64,000 nt of DNA from NCBI GenBank assembly GCA_963703315.1, contig OY969811.1:32001-96000 (forward strand). The letters are read 5' to 3'. Every line of letters begins with the position of its first letter. The stretch's first letter is position 1. Position numbers and translations under genes: made by a program. The stretch is from an uncultured cyanobacterium. Its GTDB lineage: Bacteria; Cyanobacteriota; Cyanobacteriia; Pseudanabaenales; Pseudanabaenaceae. The notes under the pieces were generated by a model. That model did no database searches. It had not been told where the DNA came from and was given only the letters and a program-made list of their open reading frames with translations. Below, in pieces: positions 29 to 10,005 of this stretch.

Positions 29-958
29 ATGGCGACAGGAAGCTTAAGTTCCAAATTTTCGGCTAACAAGATAGGTGAATGGTTTCAGCAGCAGGCTAGA
101 TTTATTATCCCGCCCGTCATAGCTTTAATATTTATTTTAGGAACATGGCAAATTCTTTGCTCAGGCAAAACCCCACCATTGCCACCACCGACCAAAGTTT
201 GGCAAGAGACTCAAGAATATATTTGGAATCCTTTCTTCGATCGCGATTATTTTGATGTCAGTGCAGCAGACAAAACTGATAGTCCTGCCCGTCAAGAGTT
301 AAAGGAAAAACTCACCATCGAAAAAGGTTTGGGCATAAAAACGATGGTCAGCTTACGGCGTGTAGCGATCGGCTATACTGCTTCCGCGATTATTGGGATT
401 TCCTTTGGCATTGCGATCGGTACAAACGTATTCCTCTATCGCGCCTTTGACCCGATTTTCCAAGTTTTACGCACGATTCCACCCCTTGCATGGCTACCGA
501 TCGCCATGTCCGCATTCCAAGGTGTGAATGAATCCCTGAAATCCGTTGGTTTAGATGTTACAGAAGCCGCCGCTTTATTCGTAATTTTTGTAACTTCGAT
601 TTGGCCGATTCTGATGAACACGGCAGTTGGGGTACAGCAAGTTCCCCAAGACTATCGCAACGTTTCGCGTGTATTACGTTTGAGCAAGTTTGATTACTTC
701 ATTACGATCCTGATGCCCTCGGCAGCACCCTATATTTTCACAGGTTTACGGATTGCTGTGGGTCTATCTTGGTTAGCGATCGTGGCGGCAGAAATGTTGA
801 CTGGTGGCGTAGGTATCGGCTTCTTTATTTGGGATAGTTACAACAGCCAAAAGAGCAGCGAATTAATTCTGGCGCTTGTGTACATTGGCTTAGTCGGATT
901 TTTGCTAGATAAAGTTGTTTACTACGTCAGCAAATTAGTTGCTCAGTCGGATGCCTAA
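29..958 (+). CDS. nrtB: Nitrate/nitrite ABC transporter permease
   Basis: Multi-TM ABC permease with PIFQVLRTIPPLAWLPIA and WLAIVAAEML motifs; in a cluster with narB. Confidence 0.88.
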   Translation: MATGSLSSKFSANKIGEWFQQQARFIIPPVIALIFILGTWQILCSGKTPPLPPPTKVWQETQEYIWNPFFDRDYFDVSAADKTDSPARQELKEKLTIEKGLGIKTMVSLRRVAIGYTASAIIGISFGIAIGTNVFLYRAFDPIFQVLRTIPPLAWLPIAMSAFQGVNESLKSVGLDVTEAAALFVIFVTSIWPILMNTAVGVQQVPQDYRNVSRVLRLSKFDYFITILMPSAAPYIFTGLRIAVGLSWLAIVAAEMLTGGVGIGFFIWDSYNSQKSSELILALVYIGLVGFLLDKVVYYVSKLVAQSDA

Positions 959-962
959 ATCC

Positions 963-990
963 GTAGGGTCAATTCATGAATTGCCCCTAC
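963..990. repeat. GTAG-type REP-like palindrome GTAGGGTCAATTCATGAATTGCCCCTAC
   Basis: Near-perfect 28-bp palindrome with GTAG/CTAC ends; related core at 43949-43966. Confidence 0.7.
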
Positions 991-1031
991 AGAATGTAAT
1001 TCCTTTTTTGAACTTCACTCATTACTCTCCT

Positions 1032-1868
1032 ATGCAGACTCTCGATCTTACAGACAATCAGCAGAAAAGAAATCAAGACCCCTTTCTGGTCATGGACGGA
1101 GTTTCTAAGGTCTATCCAACACCTAACGGACCTTATACCGTTCTTCAAGATGTTAACTTGACGATCTATGAAGGAGAGTTTATCTGCATCATTGGTCACT
1201 CTGGCTGTGGTAAATCCACACTACTCAACATGGTGGCTGGTTTTAATAGACCGACATCTGGCGAAATTTGTTTGCGATCGAAGCCAATTGTGCGCCCAGG
1301 TCCCGATCGCATGGTGGTCTTCCAAAACTATTCGCTCTTGCCTTGGATGAGTGCCTTTGAGAATGTCTACCTTGCCGTGAAGCAGGTTTATACCGACAAA
1401 TCCAAGGAAGAGAAAATCGCGATCGCCAAGAAGAGTTTAGAGTTAGTTGGCTTAACCGAAGCCATGCATAAAAGACCGAAAGAACTCTCAGGCGGGATGC
1501 GTCAGAGGGTCTCGATCGCCCGCGCTTTATCGATCCGTCCTGAAGTGCTGATCCTTGACGAACCTTTCGGTGCATTGGATGTCATGACCCGTGAAGAATT
1601 GCAGGAAGAATTACTGGCAATCTGGCGTGAAAATCGAGTGACCGCCTTGATGATCACCCATGAAATCGATGAAGCACTGTTCCTTGCCGATCGCATTGTG
1701 ATGATGAGCAATGGTCCCGCCGCCAATATTGCCGAAGTGATCGATGTCCCCTTTGCCCGTCCCCGCAATCGTAAAGCGATCGCCGATGATCCTCGCTACT
1801 ACACTCTGCGTAACTACATTCTCGAATTTCTCTATAACCGCTTTGCGTTGGCAGATGAAGCTGATTGA
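1032..1868 (+). CDS. nrtD: Nitrate ABC transporter ATP-binding protein (short, NrtD-type)
   Basis: Walker A GHSGCGKST, LSGGMRQR signature, ILDEPFGALD, no C-terminal extension; ATG at 1032 preferred over the ORF-track start inside nrtB. Confidence 0.8.
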   Translation: MQTLDLTDNQQKRNQDPFLVMDGVSKVYPTPNGPYTVLQDVNLTIYEGEFICIIGHSGCGKSTLLNMVAGFNRPTSGEICLRSKPIVRPGPDRMVVFQNYSLLPWMSAFENVYLAVKQVYTDKSKEEKIAIAKKSLELVGLTEAMHKRPKELSGGMRQRVSIARALSIRPEVLILDEPFGALDVMTREELQEELLAIWRENRVTALMITHEIDEALFLADRIVMMSNGPAANIAEVIDVPFARPRNRKAIADDPRYYTLRNYILEFLYNRFALADEAD

Positions 1869-1870
1869 TA

Positions 1871-1961
1871 AATTACGAATTACGAATTACGAATTTCTAA
1901 TTTGTAATTTGTAATTCGTAATTCCTAATTTTTAATCCCCAATTACCAATCCCCAATTACC
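1871..1961. repeat. Short tandem heptamer repeats (AATTACG x3, inverted TGTAATT/CGTAATT, CCCCAAT)
   Basis: Directly visible; STRR-like repeats typical of filamentous cyanobacteria. Confidence 0.75.
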
Positions 1962-3983
1962 ATGTCCAAATTCCTTGAAATCGATCACGTCAGTCGTATT
2001 TTCAAAACCCAGAATGGGAAGCCTTATGTTGCGGTTAAAGATGTCTACTTTGAGATGAAAGAAGGCGAGTTTGTCTCGATTATTGGACATTCTGGCTGTG
2101 GAAAATCAACGGTTCTGAATATCTTGTCTGGGCTGGATAAGGCAAGTGCGGGCGGTATTGTTTTAGAAGGGCGCGAAATTCGGGAACCAGGTCCTGATCG
2201 GATGTTGGTGTTTCAAAACCATTCGCTATTGCCTTGGTTAACAGTGCGTCAAAATATTGGTTTGGCAGTTAATCGGGTTTTGAGAGATTTGCCAAAGGAA
2301 GAACGCAACCGCATTATTCAGGAAAATATTGATCTGGTTGGTTTAAGTCATGCGGCTGATAAGTATCCTAGAGAGATTTCGGGCGGGATGAAGCAACGGG
2401 TAGGTATTGCTCGCGCTTTATCAATTAAGCCCAAAATTCTCTTGCTAGATGAACCCTTTGGCGCATTGGATGCCCTAACCAGAGGTCGTTTGCAAGAGAA
2501 GTTAATGCAGATCTGTAATGAGCATAAAATCTCGGCGGTAATGATTACCCATGATGTTGATGAAGCTCTGTTATTAAGCGATCGCATTGTGATGATGACC
2601 AATGGTCCCGAAGCCAAAATTGGTCAAGTCCTTACCGTCGATCTGCCCCATCCCCGCAAAAAACTAGAAGCAGTTAATCATCCTAATTACTATCGTCTGC
2701 GCGGTGAAGTTGTTAACTTTCTTGATCGCCAGAAGCAAATTAAGCTGGAGCGGGCTAGAAACAAGAGCAATGCTGCGATCAGTCTCGGCAATATCGAGAA
2801 GACCAATCTCACCATTGGCTATATTGCTCTTACCGATTGCGCTCCCTTTGCGATCGCTCAAGAAAAAGGTCTATTTGCTAAATATGGACTTGATGTTACG
2901 CTCTCCAAAGAAAATAGTTGGAATGATCTAGCAGAGGGAATTCGCGAAGGGCGTTTAGATGCCGCGCAAATGGTCACAGGTATGCCCCTTGCGATCACTT
3001 TAGGCATGGGAAATCAAATTCCTGTACCTGTAGTGACTTCCTTAACGTTAAGTCGCAATGGCAATGCGATTACCCTCGGTAAAAGGCTCCAAAATGAAGG
3101 TGTCCATGATCTCGCATCACTCAAAGCTTACATTTTAGAAAAATACCAAGATGCTTATAACCCTGCATTGGGGATGGTGCATCATGCCTCTATGCATAAT
3201 CTCCTATTGCGTCACTGGCTGGCTAGTGGTGGCATTGAACCCGACAAGGATGTGGATGTGATTGTGATTCCGCCGCCACAGATGGTCTCGAACCTGATGG
3301 CAAATAATATCATCGGTTACTGTGTTGGTGAACCTTGGAATGTCCGTGCGGTAAATGATAACGTCGGTTTCGTTGTCGCCACTGACCTTGATATTTGGCG
3401 TGGACATCCAGAAAAAGTCCTCGGAGTTCGCAAAGACTGGGCAGAACAATATCCCAATACTCACCTTGAAGTTGTGAAGGCATTGCTAGAAGCCTGTCAG
3501 TTCTGTGAACCCCTACAAAATCGCGATGAAGTCGTCTTGACTCTCGCCAAGCCCAATTATCTCAATCTCGATCCTGTGTACATTCGCCCTGGATTTGCAG
3601 GACCTTATCGAGTTAGCACTACAACCGCAAAATACGATCAAGATTTCTGCCAATTTGGCGTGAGTAATATGCCTTCACGCAAAGAGCATCTGTGGGTGTT
3701 AACGCAAATGGCGCGTTGGGGACTAGTTCATTTCCCCGAAAACTATGCTGAGGTAATCTATAATCTGCTTGCTACGGATGTGTATAACCAAGCCGCCAAA
3801 GAATTAGAATTACCTTACGAGCAAGAAGACAAGGAGCTAATTTTACTGGCAGATGGCTCTACCTTTGATCCAAGTGACCCGATCGCAGCATTGCAATCCA
3901 TGCCATACTCACGATTTACTGAGACTAGCTATTTTGATCCCGTTAAAGGTTTCGCCACCAAAAAAGTAGCTGTTCGCCAATAG
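1962..3983 (+). CDS. nrtC: Nitrate ABC transporter ATP-binding protein with C-terminal NrtA-like regulatory domain
   Basis: N-terminal ABC ATPase plus ~400-aa binding-protein-like domain (IGYIALTDCAP, GYCVGEPWN, HPEKVLG). Confidence 0.88.
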   Translation: MSKFLEIDHVSRIFKTQNGKPYVAVKDVYFEMKEGEFVSIIGHSGCGKSTVLNILSGLDKASAGGIVLEGREIREPGPDRMLVFQNHSLLPWLTVRQNIGLAVNRVLRDLPKEERNRIIQENIDLVGLSHAADKYPREISGGMKQRVGIARALSIKPKILLLDEPFGALDALTRGRLQEKLMQICNEHKISAVMITHDVDEALLLSDRIVMMTNGPEAKIGQVLTVDLPHPRKKLEAVNHPNYYRLRGEVVNFLDRQKQIKLERARNKSNAAISLGNIEKTNLTIGYIALTDCAPFAIAQEKGLFAKYGLDVTLSKENSWNDLAEGIREGRLDAAQMVTGMPLAITLGMGNQIPVPVVTSLTLSRNGNAITLGKRLQNEGVHDLASLKAYILEKYQDAYNPALGMVHHASMHNLLLRHWLASGGIEPDKDVDVIVIPPPQMVSNLMANNIIGYCVGEPWNVRAVNDNVGFVVATDLDIWRGHPEKVLGVRKDWAEQYPNTHLEVVKALLEACQFCEPLQNRDEVVLTLAKPNYLNLDPVYIRPGFAGPYRVSTTTAKYDQDFCQFGVSNMPSRKEHLWVLTQMARWGLVHFPENYAEVIYNLLATDVYNQAAKELELPYEQEDKELILLADGSTFDPSDPIAALQSMPYSRFTETSYFDPVKGFATKKVAVRQ

Positions 3984-3998
3984 CTAAACACTTTGTCT

Positions 3999-6170
3999 AT
4001 GTCTGCAACCACTTCTGTTTTAACCAATACCACACCTCAAATCGTCAAAACCCTTTGCCCCTACTGCGGTGTTGGTTGCGGTTTAGAAGTGGTGGAAACT
4101 ACTAAAGAACCCACGATCAAATTTCCCGATCGCTTTAAAGTCCGAGGCGATCGCGATCATCCTTCTAGTCAAGGCATGGTTTGTGTCAAAGGCGCAACCA
4201 TTGCCGAGTCTATTCAAAAAGATCGGCTCTTACATCCGATGATGCGCGATCGCCTCGATCAGGAATTTCGTCAAGTCAGTTGGGATGAGGCTCTTGAGAC
4301 GATTACGCAACGCATTCAGCAAGTGCTAGCCACCAAAGGTGCAGATGCTCTCTGTATGTATGGTTCGGGGCAGTTTCAAACCGAGGATTATTACACAGCC
4401 CAGAAATTATTTAAAGGTTGTTTAGGAACCAATAATTTTGATGCCAACTCCCGTCTCTGTATGTCTTCCGCCGTGTCAGGCTATGTTAAAAGTTTTGGCT
4501 CCGATGGACCTCCCTGCTGCTATGAAGATTTTGATTTAACTGATTGTCTGTTTGCGATCGGCACAAATACCGCCGAATGTCATCCGATTATTTTTAATCG
4601 CTTTCGCAAACGCCACAAAAAGAATCCCCATGTCAAGCTAATTGTCATTGATCCTCGGCGGACGCAAACTGCTGAGGTTGCCGACTTACACTTAGCGATT
4701 CAACCCGGCACTGATATTGATTTATTAAATGGCATTGCCCACCTGTTATTGAAATGGGAGAAATGCGATCGCCAATTCATCGAAAACCACACCACAGGCT
4801 TTAGCGAATTTACGGAAATCACCCAACTCTATACTCCCGAATTCGTGGCAAGACGCTGTGGAATTAGTGTAGAAGATTTGGAACTAGCCGCGAAATATTG
4901 GGCAGAATCGCAGCGAGTTCTCTCAATATGGTCAATGGGAGTCAATCAGTCCACTCAAGGCACTGCCAAAGTCCAATGTATTATTAATCTGCATTTACTT
5001 ACTGCTCAAATTGGCAAAGCAGGAACAGGCCCTTTTTCGCTCACTGGTCAGCCCAATGCAATGGGAGGCAGGGAAGCAGGAGGCTTAGCCCATTTATTAC
5101 CAGGCTATCGCTTTGTCACGAATCCTGAACATCGTGCGGAACTAGAAACATTTTGGAATTTGCCTACGGGACAAATTTCCTCTCAAGTTGGACGTACCGC
5201 ATGGGATATGGTGCGCGGTTTAGAAACCGATGAAGTGGATTTGCTTTGGATTGCCGCCACTAATCCTGCGGTTAGTTTTCCTGACTTAGTACGAACTAAA
5301 GCGGCATTGAGGCGATCGCCTTTTACCGTTTATCAAGATGCCTATTACCCGACCGAAACTTCTGAATTCGCCCATATCTTGCTACCAGCAACCCAATGGA
5401 GCGAGAAGACTGGCACAATGACTAATTCTGAGCGTTGCGTTACGCTCTGTCAATCCTTTCAGCCTCCCCTCGGTGAATCCCTTGCTGATTGGGAAATTTT
5501 TGCCGCAGTTGGACGTAGATTAGGTTTTGCTGACAAATTCCCGTTCCAAAACTCCGCCGAGGTCTATGCCGAATTTGTGCAGATAACTCGCGATCGCCCC
5601 TGTGATATGACAGGTATCAGCCACGCTAAACTCACACAATTAGGCGCGATGCAATGGCAAGCTTCCGATCAACATCCTGAGCAAGATCAGGTTCACGATA
5701 AGCGTCTCTACACGGATTTACAGTTCTATACCCCTGACCGCAAAGCCAGATTTGGTATTTATCATTCCCAAGGTGTATTTGAAGTTCCCGATGAGCAGTA
5801 TCCATTTATTCTCACTACTGGCAGACTATACGGACATTGGCATACGCAAACTCGCACAGGTAGAATTGACAAGATTCGGCAAATGTATCCCAATCCATTT
5901 ATCGAAATCCATCCCAAGGATGCACATAAATTTGGTATTAATAACGGTGATCTAGTAGAAGTAAAGTCACGTCGCGGTTCTTCTAAGTTTCCTGCATTGG
6001 TGACGGAAGCGATCGCGCGAGGTGTATTATTTGTACCGATGCACTGGGGCGCACTCTGGGCAGACAATGCCGAAGCTAATGCCCTCACTCATCCTGAAGC
6101 TTGTCCCGACTCCAAGCAGCCAGAGTTAAAGGCTTGTGCAGTGGCGATCGCTCTAGTTAATTTGCATTAG
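3999..6170 (+). CDS. narB: Ferredoxin-dependent assimilatory nitrate reductase
   Basis: CPYCGVGCG Fe-S motif, [42 protein letters not shown]. Confidence 0.93.
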
Positions 6171-6386
6171 GAGAGAAGCTCTTGGTGTTTGTTATACAGT
6201 GCCACAATTAGCCGCATTGATGGTTGATTGTCAAAATCATGGCGATCTCCTTGATTTTGGCAGATAGTGAATACGCGATCGCTAAAATCCTCGATTCACA
6301 AAATAGTGGTAAAACTGCAACATTTTACTTTTTGGGTGAAATTTGCCATAATTAATTAAAACTTGCTAAATAATTAGTGAATTTAT

Positions 6387-6881
6387 ATGTCTTCTAAAGA
6401 TCTTGAGATGCTTGAGAAAAACATAGAGAGGTTACGTGAACAAATAGCGGGGGTGCAAGAAGCGCTGGTACTAGCTGAAAGACTTGACAAGCCCAGAATT
6501 AAGCAAGTAATTGGTAAATTACGTGAGGAACTTCTTGATTTTGAGCAGGAAAAGTGGAATCTGATTGCTGAGGTTACATCAGATGCAGAGATCGCTAATG
6601 ATGAAGCTGAGAACATCGTAGCGGAACTTGTGGCAAAAGCGACTAATCCTCCTGATGACGCTTCAACAGAAGTTTTGGCATTATTGCAACAAATCCTGAC
6701 GAAGATTAACGAACAAGATAAAACGGCGGCGGCAAAGTTAAAGGGGGCAATTTCACTTTTACCACCTTTTGTATCGCTGGTCTTTGAGACAGAAATGGAT
6801 ACAGAGAATACAGTTAAGAAATATTTTCCGACCTTTAGCCGTTGGATAAAAAAGGAGGCAGTAGGTCGCCTAAAAAAGTAG
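6387..6881 (+). CDS. Hypothetical helical/coiled-coil protein; probable N-terminal module of the downstream NB-ARC-TPR protein via -1 frameshift
   Basis: 164-aa ATG-started ORF ending CTA AAA AAG TAG and overlapping the next ORF in the -1 frame. Confidence 0.75.
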   Translation: MSSKDLEMLEKNIERLREQIAGVQEALVLAERLDKPRIKQVIGKLREELLDFEQEKWNLIAEVTSDAEIANDEAENIVAELVAKATNPPDDASTEVLALLQQILTKINEQDKTAAAKLKGAISLLPPFVSLVFETEMDTENTVKKYFPTFSRWIKKEAVGRLKK

Positions 6882-9232
6882 CTTTTCCAGAAGAGCATAA
6901 TTCTGCAAAATCTGGTATCAAAATAGCGCAAAACATACAAACTGCTTTAGAAAATCCTGTGGCTGGTGGTGATATTAATGCACCCATCACACAGAAAATC
7001 GAGAACAACCCAAATAAGGTAGCTGAAAATATAGGGGTGCTGGCTCAGTCGGGTAGCAACGTAACTATTCAAAACCTGAATGTTGCTAGTAGCACACCAC
7101 AACTAGACGCTAATCCCTTTGCGCCGCCATCTGTGCGTGATAGTGGATTGTTTGGACGAGTGGACGATCTAAAACGATTGCATGAGTTGTTGCAAGGTGG
7201 AAAAAATGTCTGCGTGGTCACAGGTATGGGCGGTGCGGGCAAGACAGAACTGGTACGGGATTATGCGGGTAGTGCGGAATGTCGCGAGTTATTTGCGGGT
7301 GGGGTGTTTTATGTAGTTGTGCGCGATCGCCAAAATTTAGCGGCGGAAATTGTCACTTTGACTGAATGGCGGTTTAAGAGTCCGTTGCCCAAAAATTTGA
7401 CACTGAAACAGCAAGTTAAGGCTTGTTGGGATGTATGGAAACGTCAAAATGTAAAGTCATTGTTGATTTTAGATGATGTGTCTAAGTTGGCGGAGAATGT
7501 GAAACCCTATTTGCCAACCTCAGATTTGACATCGTTGCGCCTATTGATGACTTCGCGGGAAAGCCCAGACAGTGCTATTCAAAAGTTAGAACTACAGGAG
7601 TTATTGCCTGATCCTGCAAGGGAATTTTTGGCTTCAATTATTGGGGCGGCGCGGGTAGAACAGGAAAGCGAGCAAGCCGATTTGCTCTGTGAGGATTTGG
7701 GGTATTTGCCTTTGGCGTTGGAACTAGTGGGCTATTACTTGATAGATGATGACAATACTGAATTGTCACTGGCAGCGATGCGGGGCAAGTTACAGGAAAA
7801 GGTAAATCATGCTTCTCTCTCTCCTGAAGATATGCCGATGGGGATAGCTGCGGAAAGAGGTGTGATGGCTGCGTTTGACTTGAGTTGGGAGGAGTTGAAA
7901 ACAGAAGCGCAATATCTCGCCTGTGTATTAGGGGCATTTGCATCGGCTCCGATAGATTGGAGTCATGTGGAAGGCATATATGTTAAGTCGCAAGGAGAAG
8001 CATTTAATCCTGATAATCTAAAAGAGCGCTGGTTAAAATCCTTACTGAAACTACATTTAGTCAAGAAAACAGAGTCAGGTATTTTCGTTCTACATTCTCT
8101 CCTACGAGACTATTTTACTTCACAACTAAATAAGCATAGTGATCGAAGCCAAATTTTGTCTTCTTTTATCGCTGTCTTTGTCGATGTAGCAAAAATTATC
8201 GAGTTATATACAACTCTCGCAATTTTCAAACGACTCGAACCCCAACTTAAACAAATCATCTCTCTTCAAAATAACAAGGAAGATCCGCAACTTGCTATTT
8301 GCTTGAATGGCTTGGCAGGACTATATCAATCGCAAGGTAAGTACGGAGAAGCAGAACCACTCTTTGTTCATGCTCTATTGATTCGGGAAAAAAGACTAGG
8401 AGCATATCATCCCAATGTTGCAACCAGCCTTAACAATCTAGGATTACTGTACGAATCGCAGGGGAAGTATAGAGACGCAGAATTGTTCTATTTGCGATCA
8501 ATCGAAATTTATACAAGACAATTTGGCGTAGACCATCTCACTATCGCAGACAGTTTTAATAATTTGGCAGAACTATACCATACGCAAGGAAGGTACAACG
8601 AGGCACAACCTCTTTTTGTAAAATCTCTTTTAATTTATGAAAAAGAACTTGGTGCAGATCATCTTAATGTTGCTATTGTTCTTAATAATTTGGCATTACT
8701 TTATCAAACTCAAAAGAAATATAGCAAAGCAGAACCACTATTTGTAAAATCACTCTCAATCAGGAAACTGAGACTAGGAGTAGACAATTTGCTTGTCGCT
8801 ACTAGTCTAAATAATTTGGCATTACTTTATAAAGATCAAGGGAAGTACAACGAGGCAGAACCACTCTTCGTGCAATTACTTGAGATTTTAAGAGGACAGC
8901 TAGGAGAAAAACATCCTACCTTTGCTAATAGTCTAAACAATCTGGCATCACTTTACGATTTGCAGAAAAAGTATAGTGAGTCAGAACCTCTATATGTTCG
9001 ATCACTCGAAATTAAAAAACTTACATATCAAGGAGATCACCCTGAAATTGCAATAAGCATGAACAATTTAGCACTATGTTATAGATTTCAAGGAAACTAC
9101 GGCAAGGCAGAACAGTTCTATGTAGGAGCGATCCAGATTCTTGAACAAACATTTGGCTCTAATCATCCCAGCACGATACAAGTGAGCGAAAACTATAGGC
9201 TCTTACGCAATGCAATGTATGAATCCTCATAA
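6842..9232 (+). CDS. NB-ARC (STAND NTPase) plus TPR repeat protein, bacterial NLR-like
   Basis: Walker A GMGGAGKT, Walker B LLILDDV, LLMTSR, GYLPLALEL, LHSLL, then seven ~42-aa TPRs (SLNNLAxLYxxQGKY); first in-frame ATG lies within Walker A. Confidence 0.88.
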   Translation: MDKKGGSRSPKKVAFPEEHNSAKSGIKIAQNIQTALENPVAGGDINAPITQKIENNPNKVAENIGVLAQSGSNVTIQNLNVASSTPQLDANPFAPPSVRDSGLFGRVDDLKRLHELLQGGKNVCVVTGMGGAGKTELVRDYAGSAECRELFAGGVFYVVVRDRQNLAAEIVTLTEWRFKSPLPKNLTLKQQVKACWDVWKRQNVKSLLILDDVSKLAENVKPYLPTSDLTSLRLLMTSRESPDSAIQKLELQELLPDPAREFLASIIGAARVEQESEQADLLCEDLGYLPLALELVGYYLIDDDNTELSLAAMRGKLQEKVNHASLSPEDMPMGIAAERGVMAAFDLSWEELKTEAQYLACVLGAFASAPIDWSHVEGIYVKSQGEAFNPDNLKERWLKSLLKLHLVKKTESGIFVLHSLLRDYFTSQLNKHSDRSQILSSFIAVFVDVAKIIELYTTLAIFKRLEPQLKQIISLQNNKEDPQLAICLNGLAGLYQSQGKYGEAEPLFVHALLIREKRLGAYHPNVATSLNNLGLLYESQGKYRDAELFYLRSIEIYTRQFGVDHLTIADSFNNLAELYHTQGRYNEAQPLFVKSLLIYEKELGADHLNVAIVLNNLALLYQTQKKYSKAEPLFVKSLSIRKLRLGVDNLLVATSLNNLALLYKDQGKYNEAEPLFVQLLEILRGQLGEKHPTFANSLNNLASLYDLQKKYSESEPLYVRSLEIKKLTYQGDHPEIAISMNNLALCYRFQGNYGKAEQFYVGAIQILEQTFGSNHPSTIQVSENYRLLRNAMYESS
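6853..6910 (+). promoter_or_regulatory. Putative programmed -1 ribosomal frameshift signal: internal SD AGGAGG, slippery A_AAA_AAG, 3' hairpin
   Basis: AGGAGG at 6853-6858; A AAA AAG at 6872-6878 in the correct phase; TTTTCCAGAA-N8-TTCTGCAAAA at 6883-6910. Confidence 0.72.
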
Positions 9233-9305: not shown

Positions 9306-9626
9306 ATGAAAACCAAAGATATTTCGGCTAAATCTATGAATGTACTTAAATTGCGATCTAATCACCCAGAATCGATCAAGGAAATGATCGAAAGTGACCT
9401 CGCTAAAAGGTTACAAATCATTGAAGTAGCAATACAAACTACCCACAAAAAACTAAAACAGTTTGAATCCCAATATCAGTGGTCAACTGAAAAATTCGTT
9501 AATCTCTTCACCAGTGATCAATTGCAACATAGTCTAGATTTTGATGAATGGCTAGGAGAAGCGTGGATGTTAGAAAAATTGCAACAAAAACAAGCAATCA
9601 TCAAGGAGATCGAATTTGTTGATTGA
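9306..9626 (+). CDS. Putative antitoxin partner of the DUF6516/TumE toxin
   Basis: Small ORF (LKQFESQYQWSTEKF...DFDEW) overlapping the downstream toxin-like gene; start uncertain (9306 or 9336). Confidence 0.6.
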   Translation: MKTKDISAKSMNVLKLRSNHPESIKEMIESDLAKRLQIIEVAIQTTHKKLKQFESQYQWSTEKFVNLFTSDQLQHSLDFDEWLGEAWMLEKLQQKQAIIKEIEFVD

Positions 9627-10005
9627 TAACTATTTTGAACGCATTAGGAGTGTACTTTCCCAGCCTTCAATTATTCAAAAAGTTGAACTTGAGACAGAAA
9701 AGCGCACAGATACACTTGGTTTTATTAGAGGTAATGTCTATTTTAAAGATGGCTCATTACTGCATATTCGAGAATTTGTTGATGTAGAAACATCCATTGA
9801 CAGAGGCAAATATACTTATCAGTACATGAATAAAGAAGGCGATCTAATTTTTCGTTATGACAATGCTCTCCATCATCAAAAGCTAAACCTGTCAACATTT
9901 CCCCACCACAAACATGATCGCCATGAAGACAATATAGTTATTTCGACTGCTCCTTTACTAGAGGCTATTTTCCAAGAAATAGAAAGAATTATAAGCCAAT
10001 ATTAA
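9616..10005 (+). CDS. DUF6516 / TumE-family toxin-antitoxin protein
   Basis: FKDGSLLHIREF, YTYQY, IFRYDNALHH, TFPHHKH motifs. Confidence 0.72.
   Translation: MLIDNYFERIRSVLSQPSIIQKVELETEKRTDTLGFIRGNVYFKDGSLLHIREFVDVETSIDRGKYTYQYMNKEGDLIFRYDNALHHQKLNLSTFPHHKHDRHEDNIVISTAPLLEAIFQEIERIISQY

Follow-up and report, generated by a model that had tools for sequence, protein, structure and literature searches.

How can a large NLR-like receptor be produced when the first ATG of its reading frame lies only inside Walker A? The question is raised by a locus of an uncultured cyanobacterium of the Pseudanabaenaceae (complete genome, 4.57 Mb), within the stretch of 64,000 nucleotides (nt) analyzed here and called the window (contig OY969811.1, positions 32,001 to 96,000). 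Two open reading frames (ORFs) overlap there on the + strand, namely, ORF1 (6387..6881), which encodes a 164-amino-acid (aa) all-helical module, and ORF2 (6878..9232), which encodes an NB-ARC-TPR protein in the -1 frame. An earlier note had proposed that the two are joined by programmed -1 ribosomal frameshifting. We consider this reading, with a signal of the dnaX/IS3 type, highly probable, supported as it is by the conservation of the signal, by in-frame fusions among relatives, and by gap-free contigs. The signal is probably functional, a real and conserved recoding signal of known type in a new setting, where it forms part of a portable cassette. That ribosomes shift here in vivo, and at what rate, we infer from sequence.

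The junction of ORF1 and ORF2

The last codons of ORF1 are CTA (6870-72), AAA (6873-75), AAG (6876-78), and TAG (6879-81). Read in these codons, the heptamer A_AAA_AAG (6872..6878, + strand), the predicted site of the -1 shift, stands in X_XXY_YYZ phase directly before the adjoining 0-frame stop TAG (6879..6881, +), just as the earlier note had it. The -1 frame stays open between 6839 and 9232; the earliest ATG in it (7226) encodes the second residue of Walker A (7223-7246), a further point of that note with which the sequence and Pfam agree. This frame carries an NB-ARC (STAND) ATPase (7178..7804, +; PF00931, E 1.7e-9, 37.7 bits against a cut-off of 23.5), followed by a TPR sensor region with the approximate limits 8195..9211 (+), placed by TPR_12 (E 1.5e-72), seven TPR_10 stretches, and paralogue alignments. 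With a Walker A motif in its NB-ARC domain and C-terminal repeats, the predicted ORF2 protein is STAND/NLR-like.

In the proposed mechanism, ribosomes translating ORF1 would be slowed at A_AAA_AAG by a 3' stem-loop and, in the window, by pairing of the 16S rRNA to an upstream Shine-Dalgarno (SD)-like element. Most of them would stop at the adjoining TAG and release the free module (164 aa, 18.5 kDa predicted), while a minority would slip back by one base, adding the 784 aa of ORF2 to yield a module-linker-NB-ARC-TPR protein (948 aa, 106 kDa predicted). The module, heptamer, stop, and hairpin together would be the evolving unit, one that has become linked to numerous STAND ATPases as well as other sensors.

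The internal SD-like element (6852..6858, +) contains AGGAGG at 6853-6858, which ends 13 nt before the heptamer, as had been noted earlier, and pairs with the 3' tail of the genome's own 16S rRNA at -11.6 kcal/mol; its spacer falls within the 6-17 nt given for SD-like stimulators (PMC4066793). A 3' stem-loop candidate (6887..6915, +) pairs 6887-6891 with 6911-6915 (-7.6 kcal/mol). The hairpin at 6883-6910 that the earlier note had described does exist (-4.8 kcal/mol), but it is weak, with a z score of -2.55 in a 30-nt piece alone and of -0.19 to -0.75 in three longer folding windows, and relatives prefer the competing 6887-6915 pairing, which is lengthened in the close relatives L144 (-16.7 kcal/mol) and L017 (-10.1 kcal/mol).

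Such an end is rare in this genome. Among 4,498 ORFs of at least 100 aa, 11 end in A6G or A7 within 3 codons of the stop, and only two of the 11 are met by a -1 frame of at least 100 codons, namely, ORF1 (784 codons) and one other (173 codons). A_AAA_AAG encodes 93 of the 2,508 Lys-Lys pairs of the genome and 2 of the 40 other Lys-Lys pairs within the modules. The genome-wide underuse of A_AAA_AAG (93 against 141 expected) was dropped as support, as A_AAA_AAA turned out to be likewise underused and the effect is not specific. A second in-phase A_AAA_AAG (6848..6854, +), overlooked by the earlier note, overlaps the SD-like element and has no such element of its own; a slip there would likewise lead into ORF2. 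It is a strain-level feature: L002, the closest relative, has it too, whereas the other close relatives inspected do not.

Conservation of the signal among relatives

Relatives of the module were found in 9 of 61 related genomes, at 76 GTDB loci, and at 106 metagenome loci, of which 80 were kept; the module was present in 38 of 401 sampled genomes of the phylum, and its relatives were cyanobacterial wherever named. Pooling these, removing identical ends, and leaving out matches that fell short of the C-terminal end of the profile gave 167 distinct module C-termini. An in-phase heptamer followed by a -1 ORF of at least 150 codons was present in 118 of them, and in 8 more the heptamer was followed by a frame open to the contig edge. 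None of the 12 ends without a heptamer had a long -1 frame, 8 were fused in frame, and 2 were truncated. A long +1 ORF was seen in only three relatives. The prediction that homologues would keep the heptamer, the near stop, and the long -1 ORF, or occur as fusions, thus held, while conservation of the SD-like element proved moderate only (23 of 58 flanks against 99 of 522 controls, or 19%) and not universal.

The heptamers of the 118 loci were A_AAA_AAG (99), A_AAA_AAA (17), G_GGA_AAG (1), and G_GGA_AAA (1). The last two obey the rule of tandem re-pairing although neither has a long A run, and G_GGA_AAG is listed as highly shift-prone in Escherichia coli (PMC5009743). The first base of the heptamer had been left free in the search, and it was A in all 70 unfused A-run loci among the first 77, across codons for five residues (Ala, Leu, Lys, Pro, and Val). 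The stop lay 0-1 codons from the heptamer in 57 of 70 relatives, and a C-terminal Lys-Lys stood no more than 2 residues from the end in 90 of 96 ORF1 relatives (counted by eye). In a nonredundant set of 58 3' flanks, folding reached a z score below -1.5 in 24 (0 to 8 of 58 at ten control offsets), and at least 7 Watson-Crick pairs were formed in 23 (10 of 290 controls); pairing climbed about 6 nt past the heptamer. Stem sequences vary between clades, and many loci, including the window, have a modest stem only. As the first-base A is fixed across five amino acids, A_AAA_AAG is rare elsewhere, and a stem-loop follows, selection at the module end is, by these comparisons, acting on the RNA.

The natural variants agree with the predicted frameshift. 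In the fusions L028, L059, and L066 the site has one extra A relative to their shifting sisters; in L048 and L102, where the module ends a long protein, the site reads GCG AAA ARG, the heptamer is lost, and there is no -1 ORF; and in a heptamer-less sub-clade the following genes have their own start.

An RNAalifold consensus was built on 28 of the 58 flanks, chosen mostly for visible stems, and its 4 pairs with compensations are biased and were not counted. The idea that the SD-like element and the hairpin compensate for each other was dropped, their strengths being uncorrelated (rho -0.09, p 0.44). In a quick-version tree, 32 of 95 inner branches were left open, and no order of events was drawn from it.

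Some individual loci may be recorded here. In six Microcystis-like loci (L026, L091, L157, L170, L171, and L180) the signal is intact and the -1 frame stops after 32 codons; at L169, the flank of which is identical to theirs, this frame is open for 731 codons, which points to a common broken allele in the others. One contig (L150) holds a pair of near-identical modules, of which one has the signal and the other runs on in frame into unrelated sequence. Three TRADD-N-module proteins (L071, L078, and L082) end at the slippery site, where a shift would yield three-part fusions, and a TIR-module protein (P0112, seen at the protein level) ends likewise. A copy with a NACHT partner (L224) is borne by plasmid pCRI9333.05 of Crinalium epipsammum PCC 9333 at 3152-5565, where RefSeq splits it into two genes and places the start of ORF2 168 nt past the stop.

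Other ways to produce the ORF2 protein

The first alternative is that two separate proteins are made, ORF2 being translated from its own start or by re-initiation (TTG 6842, GTG 6959, or GTG 7037), with the A-rich end merely encoding a conserved Lys-Lys. Such arrangements occur in the family: the heptamer-less loci L124, L125, L127, and L129 are followed by ATG or GTG within a few bases, in L126 the module overlaps an 846-codon ORF at TGATG, and two paralogues in the window genome begin at their own ATG. Moreover, some start precedes Walker A in 51 of 58 relatives, in 27 of them with an SD score of -5 or better. In the window, however, the three candidate starts lack an SD (+0.1, -0.1, and -1.6 kcal/mol, respectively), though ORF1's own start scores only -3.9 kcal/mol. 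GTG 6959 reads GTA in L002 and in a contig from another study (X2), and its use would cut a conserved linker motif; neither it nor TTG 6842 is conserved as a start, in keeping with the expectation of the earlier note. In 68 of 76 loci, the stretch from the upstream -1 stop to the heptamer contains no ATG, GTG, or TTG, and 7 of 58 relatives have no start at all before Walker A, their first starts lying up to 250 codons in. Across 15 pairs, the start-less stretch showed 133 synonymous and 220 nonsynonymous differences in the -1 frame, against 47/298 and 53/294 in the other two; by this count, coding selection acts on its -1 frame. Separate translation also leaves unexplained why one synonymous choice and the -1 phase are fixed, why a hairpin is present, and why fusions and the 7 start-less loci exist. 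We regard it as very improbable; additional independent initiation in some relatives is possible.

A second alternative places the slip in transcription, with RNA polymerase adding an A within the run so that a minority of the mRNAs encodes the fusion. A runs with n > 7 have been linked to transcriptional slippage (PMC3711429), and among our loci 17 of the 118 carry A_AAA_AAA, mostly within runs of 9-10 A, a length found in 13 of 70 unfused relatives. Run length and phase also vary, as in L059 (A10, fused) against L061 (A9) and in L122 (A10, +1 ORF) against L220 (A9, fused). The window and 99 of the 118 loci, on the other hand, have only A6 followed by G, below that length, and the G_GGA_AAR loci have 3-4 A, while both the SD on the 5' side and the stem-loop some 6 nt past the heptamer suit a ribosome. 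Polymerase slippage is plausible in the long-run sub-family and unlikely in the window, and overall we give it a very slim chance. Nostocales with nSTAND4 partners make up most of the long-A group; its run length changes, and transcriptional slippage or phase variation may operate there. Six loci (L122, L123, L220, L074, L059, and L067) have A9 or A10 runs in differing phases (fused, -1, and +1), an observation that suggests one or the other.

The least credible alternative, that the true gene is a single ORF which has lost an A, whether through gene breakage, misassembly, or on/off switching at the DNA level, would suit the fused forms (8 of 167) and the A9/A10 variation, which is compatible with phase variation, and is opposed by a split kept at one place across many cyanobacterial families with long -1 ORFs intact and by the contigs of two studies that cross the junction gap-free and reveal no indel in the A run (X1, possibly from the source sample, 6197-7314, 0 differences; X2, 6655-7235, 35 substitutions).

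Apart from the starts in relatives, several observations weigh against programmed frameshifting by ribosomes. The main caveat is that the window genome has tRNA-Lys(CUU) in addition to tRNA-Lys(UUU), whereas the shiftiness of A_AAG in E. coli is tied to its sole tRNA-Lys (PMC5009743); the CUU species may lower the shift rate. A low rate would still fit, as in lambda, where a gpG/gpGT ratio of 30:1 matters for assembly (PMC5009743). In addition, 19 of the 167 ends keep the heptamer with a short -1 ORF, the hairpin of the window is weak, the SD-like element is conserved only in part, the extra A of the fusions could be a homopolymer assembly error, and kinship among the loci, many of them from Microcoleus and Microcystis, means that the counts overstate their independence. 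Finally, the module is single-copy in the window genome, with no effector-fused partner copy there.

Partners, role of the module, and known systems

The partners at 76 loci fell into 19 clusters. Pfam searches of 63 of them returned NB-ARC-TPR, NACHT, nSTAND4, AAA_35, AAA_16, WD40, TPR-only, and CHASE2 proteins, and four further partners resemble the fused nSTAND1 protein P0145 (by eye). No transposase or tail-chaperone domain was present in the Pfam matches of the window or of the 63 partners, and viral contigs held no relative of the module. The near-identical modules L015 and L016 have their first ~20 -1 codons in common and then different partners, which implies that the exchange happens downstream of the hairpin. 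Because the partners differ in this way, the unit is a portable cassette joining the module and the predicted frameshift signal to varied sensors. Portability of the signal onto many unrelated partners is a step beyond the earlier note, which had considered NB-ARC-TPR only.

Of 97 listed flanking ORFs, 61 were scanned, and these were a mix of housekeeping, toxin-antitoxin, and nuclease genes with no conserved neighbour among them. In the window, nitrate transport and nitrate reductase-like genes (29-6170, by eye) end upstream of the cassette with a 216-nt gap, and a TumE-type toxin-antitoxin pair (9306-10005; TumE E 7e-25, PADLOC PDC-M44B) directly follows ORF2, the upstream gene of the pair probably starting at ATG 9306. 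A promoter scan stayed at chance level (3 found against 2.7 expected).

The module had no family match in Pfam, NCBIfam, or PADLOC; its closest named relative is from Pseudanabaena sp. BC1403 (91% identical), and 409 representatives at 50% identity score E 0.001 or better. Two models, both of low confidence (pLDDT 68 and 66), show it as entirely helical. An N-terminal helical hairpin (residues ~3-65; 6393..6581, +; AlphaFold2 helices 3-29 and 32-65) is weakly EAD9-like, and a C-terminal helical domain with a basic last helix (6597..6878, +; mean pLDDT 66) holds the conserved columns and is the best-kept part. EAD9 (PF19962) was the commonest weak Pfam match (7 of 80 members, best E 3.7e-4), although the window module had none; P0067 scored 16.6 bits against EAD9, below the cut-off of 25, and coiled-coil families match weakly too. 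In a fold search with the whole model, all matches were helical hairpins of a generic kind (residues 1-66, highest Z 10.3); the C-terminal domain reached at best a Z of 6.1 (root mean square deviation, 4.0; 85 aligned residues), with no Foldseek match at E 0.001. A PDB sequence search returned apolipoprotein-like coiled coils only, and the ESM Atlas three unnamed cyanobacterial clusters with no usable named match.

Scans of 14 and 36 proteins found the module also on TIR, SEFIR, SNF2, Roc-COR, TRADD-N, vWA, GUN4, EAD8, and EAD11 proteins, that is, as a small helical domain on both sensors and effectors, as in EADs. A second copy, likewise typical of EADs, was not found in the window genome (G000), which has one; five other genomes have 1-3 matches. 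With a single copy, only the free module would be available for homotypic pairing. We infer that the module would be an EAD-style adaptor or effector, the shift supplying many free copies per receptor. The fixed ratio and the role in a conflict system that the earlier note had put forward are conjectural. For the free module, a role as a partner co-assembling on the activated receptor has, in our estimate, about an even chance; a brake or decoy is unlikely, and a mere by-product of keeping the receptor scarce is more doubtful still. PADLOC returned only a generic TPR match and no defence system for ORF2. The nSTAND4 partner L056 matches the candidate system PDC-S60 only from profile position 186 of 906, so that the module would fill the N-terminal slot.

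The linker motif (6929..7084, +), which encloses GTG 6959 and is putatively BASS-like, matches the N-terminus of a distant NLR-like paralogue in the genome at 62% identity and resembles the C-terminal end of a 139-aa protein encoded close to the paralogue (E 1e-3, 13 of 26 identical), which suggests that the NLR may derive from an amyloid-type pair. The paralogue locus (L142, G000:C1 ~1,060,400-1,066,100) comprises a 139-aa Bell-like gene and a 1167-aa NB-ARC-TPR gene, both with the ORF2 linker motif, and between them, on the opposite strand, a HicAB-like pair and a transposase-like element (names by eye). On its + strand, at 3961-4836, two transposase-like ORFs overlap, the first of which carries Lys-Lys-Lys close to its end; a further programmed frameshift is possible there (by eye). 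At L143 (G000:C1 ~2,970,000-2,972,900) a second Bell-like gene precedes an NB-ARC-TPR gene, and the candidate amyloid motif there is a different one.

A wider proposal, which we offer tentatively and at somewhat less than an even chance, is that of a one-gene signalosome: the cassette would make any sensor together with an excess of its free N-terminal module, which would co-assemble on the activated receptor, acting as an adaptor or a death effector. Heptamer, SD, and hairpin strength would determine the ratio, which could respond to lysyl-tRNA supply in infection or starvation and which evolution would re-tune by moving between ribosomal shift, slippage on long A runs, hard fusion, and separate genes.

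The literature searched, mainly outside subscription journals, held no report of the module family or of frameshifting in STAND genes; in the part consulted of bioRxiv 2025.12.20.695498, prfB is the only frameshifting reported. If the frameshift is true, it would be the first such case found in NLR-like conflict proteins in that literature, current annotation of these receptors misses their N-terminus, and screens that clone the annotated STAND gene alone would assay a truncated protein. The signal is short and comes with natural controls (fused, long-A, G_GGA_AAR, and separate-gene versions), and the cassette offers a test case for A_AAA_AAG shifting in a cell with tRNA-Lys(CUU). To our knowledge, few cellular, non-mobile uses of -1 frameshifting in bacteria have been proven.

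Among known systems, the Bell/BASS-NLR pairs (Dyrka et al., bioRxiv 2020.01.06.895854) have an N-terminal motif of an NB-ARC-TPR protein in common with the C-terminus of a ~140-aa protein, an arrangement that the candidate motif here resembles. In those pairs the effector is encoded separately by the gene next door, whereas none of the tests run marked the module adjoining ORF2 as Bell-like; that module is joined to ORF2 by a predicted frameshift, while the matching small protein lies about 1 Mb off, beside the paralogue at 1.066 Mb of G000. The EADs of Kaur et al. (2020 and 2021), with EAD9 the nearest, are likewise small, helical, and non-enzymatic, and the spread of the module over sensors and effectors is the pattern described for EAD adaptors (PMC7159879). 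The module differs from them in its length of ~165 aa with an extra C-terminal domain, its score under the EAD9 cut-off, and its single copy in the window genome; neither main text (PMC7159879 and PMC8195603) contains the word "frameshift".

The two-ORF fusion clusters of Antonov et al. (2013), such as magnesium chelatase, DUF111, DUF772, and a spore germination protein, are likewise non-mobile, annotated as two ORFs, and matched by fused homologues (PMC3711429). Those named have one fixed partner each, unlike the cassette, and neither an NB-ARC nor a cyanobacterial cluster is named in the main text, two supplements also being without a match. The signal of E. coli dnaX (tau/gamma) is likewise A_AAA_AAG preceded by an SD-like element, and a stem-loop follows it (PMC3711429 and PMC6771820), a part that is weak in the window and enriched in the family. 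The shift in dnaX shortens the product, whereas here it would lengthen it, and the present signal differs further in its cyanobacterial host with two tRNA-Lys species and in an SD only partly conserved in the family. Closest in output are OrfA/OrfAB of the IS3 family and gpG/gpGT of phage lambda, where a short 0-frame product accompanies a -1 fusion (PMC5009743), as predicted here; the cassette described here is neither a transposase nor a phage gene, and its sensor-ATPase partners are exchanged between lineages.

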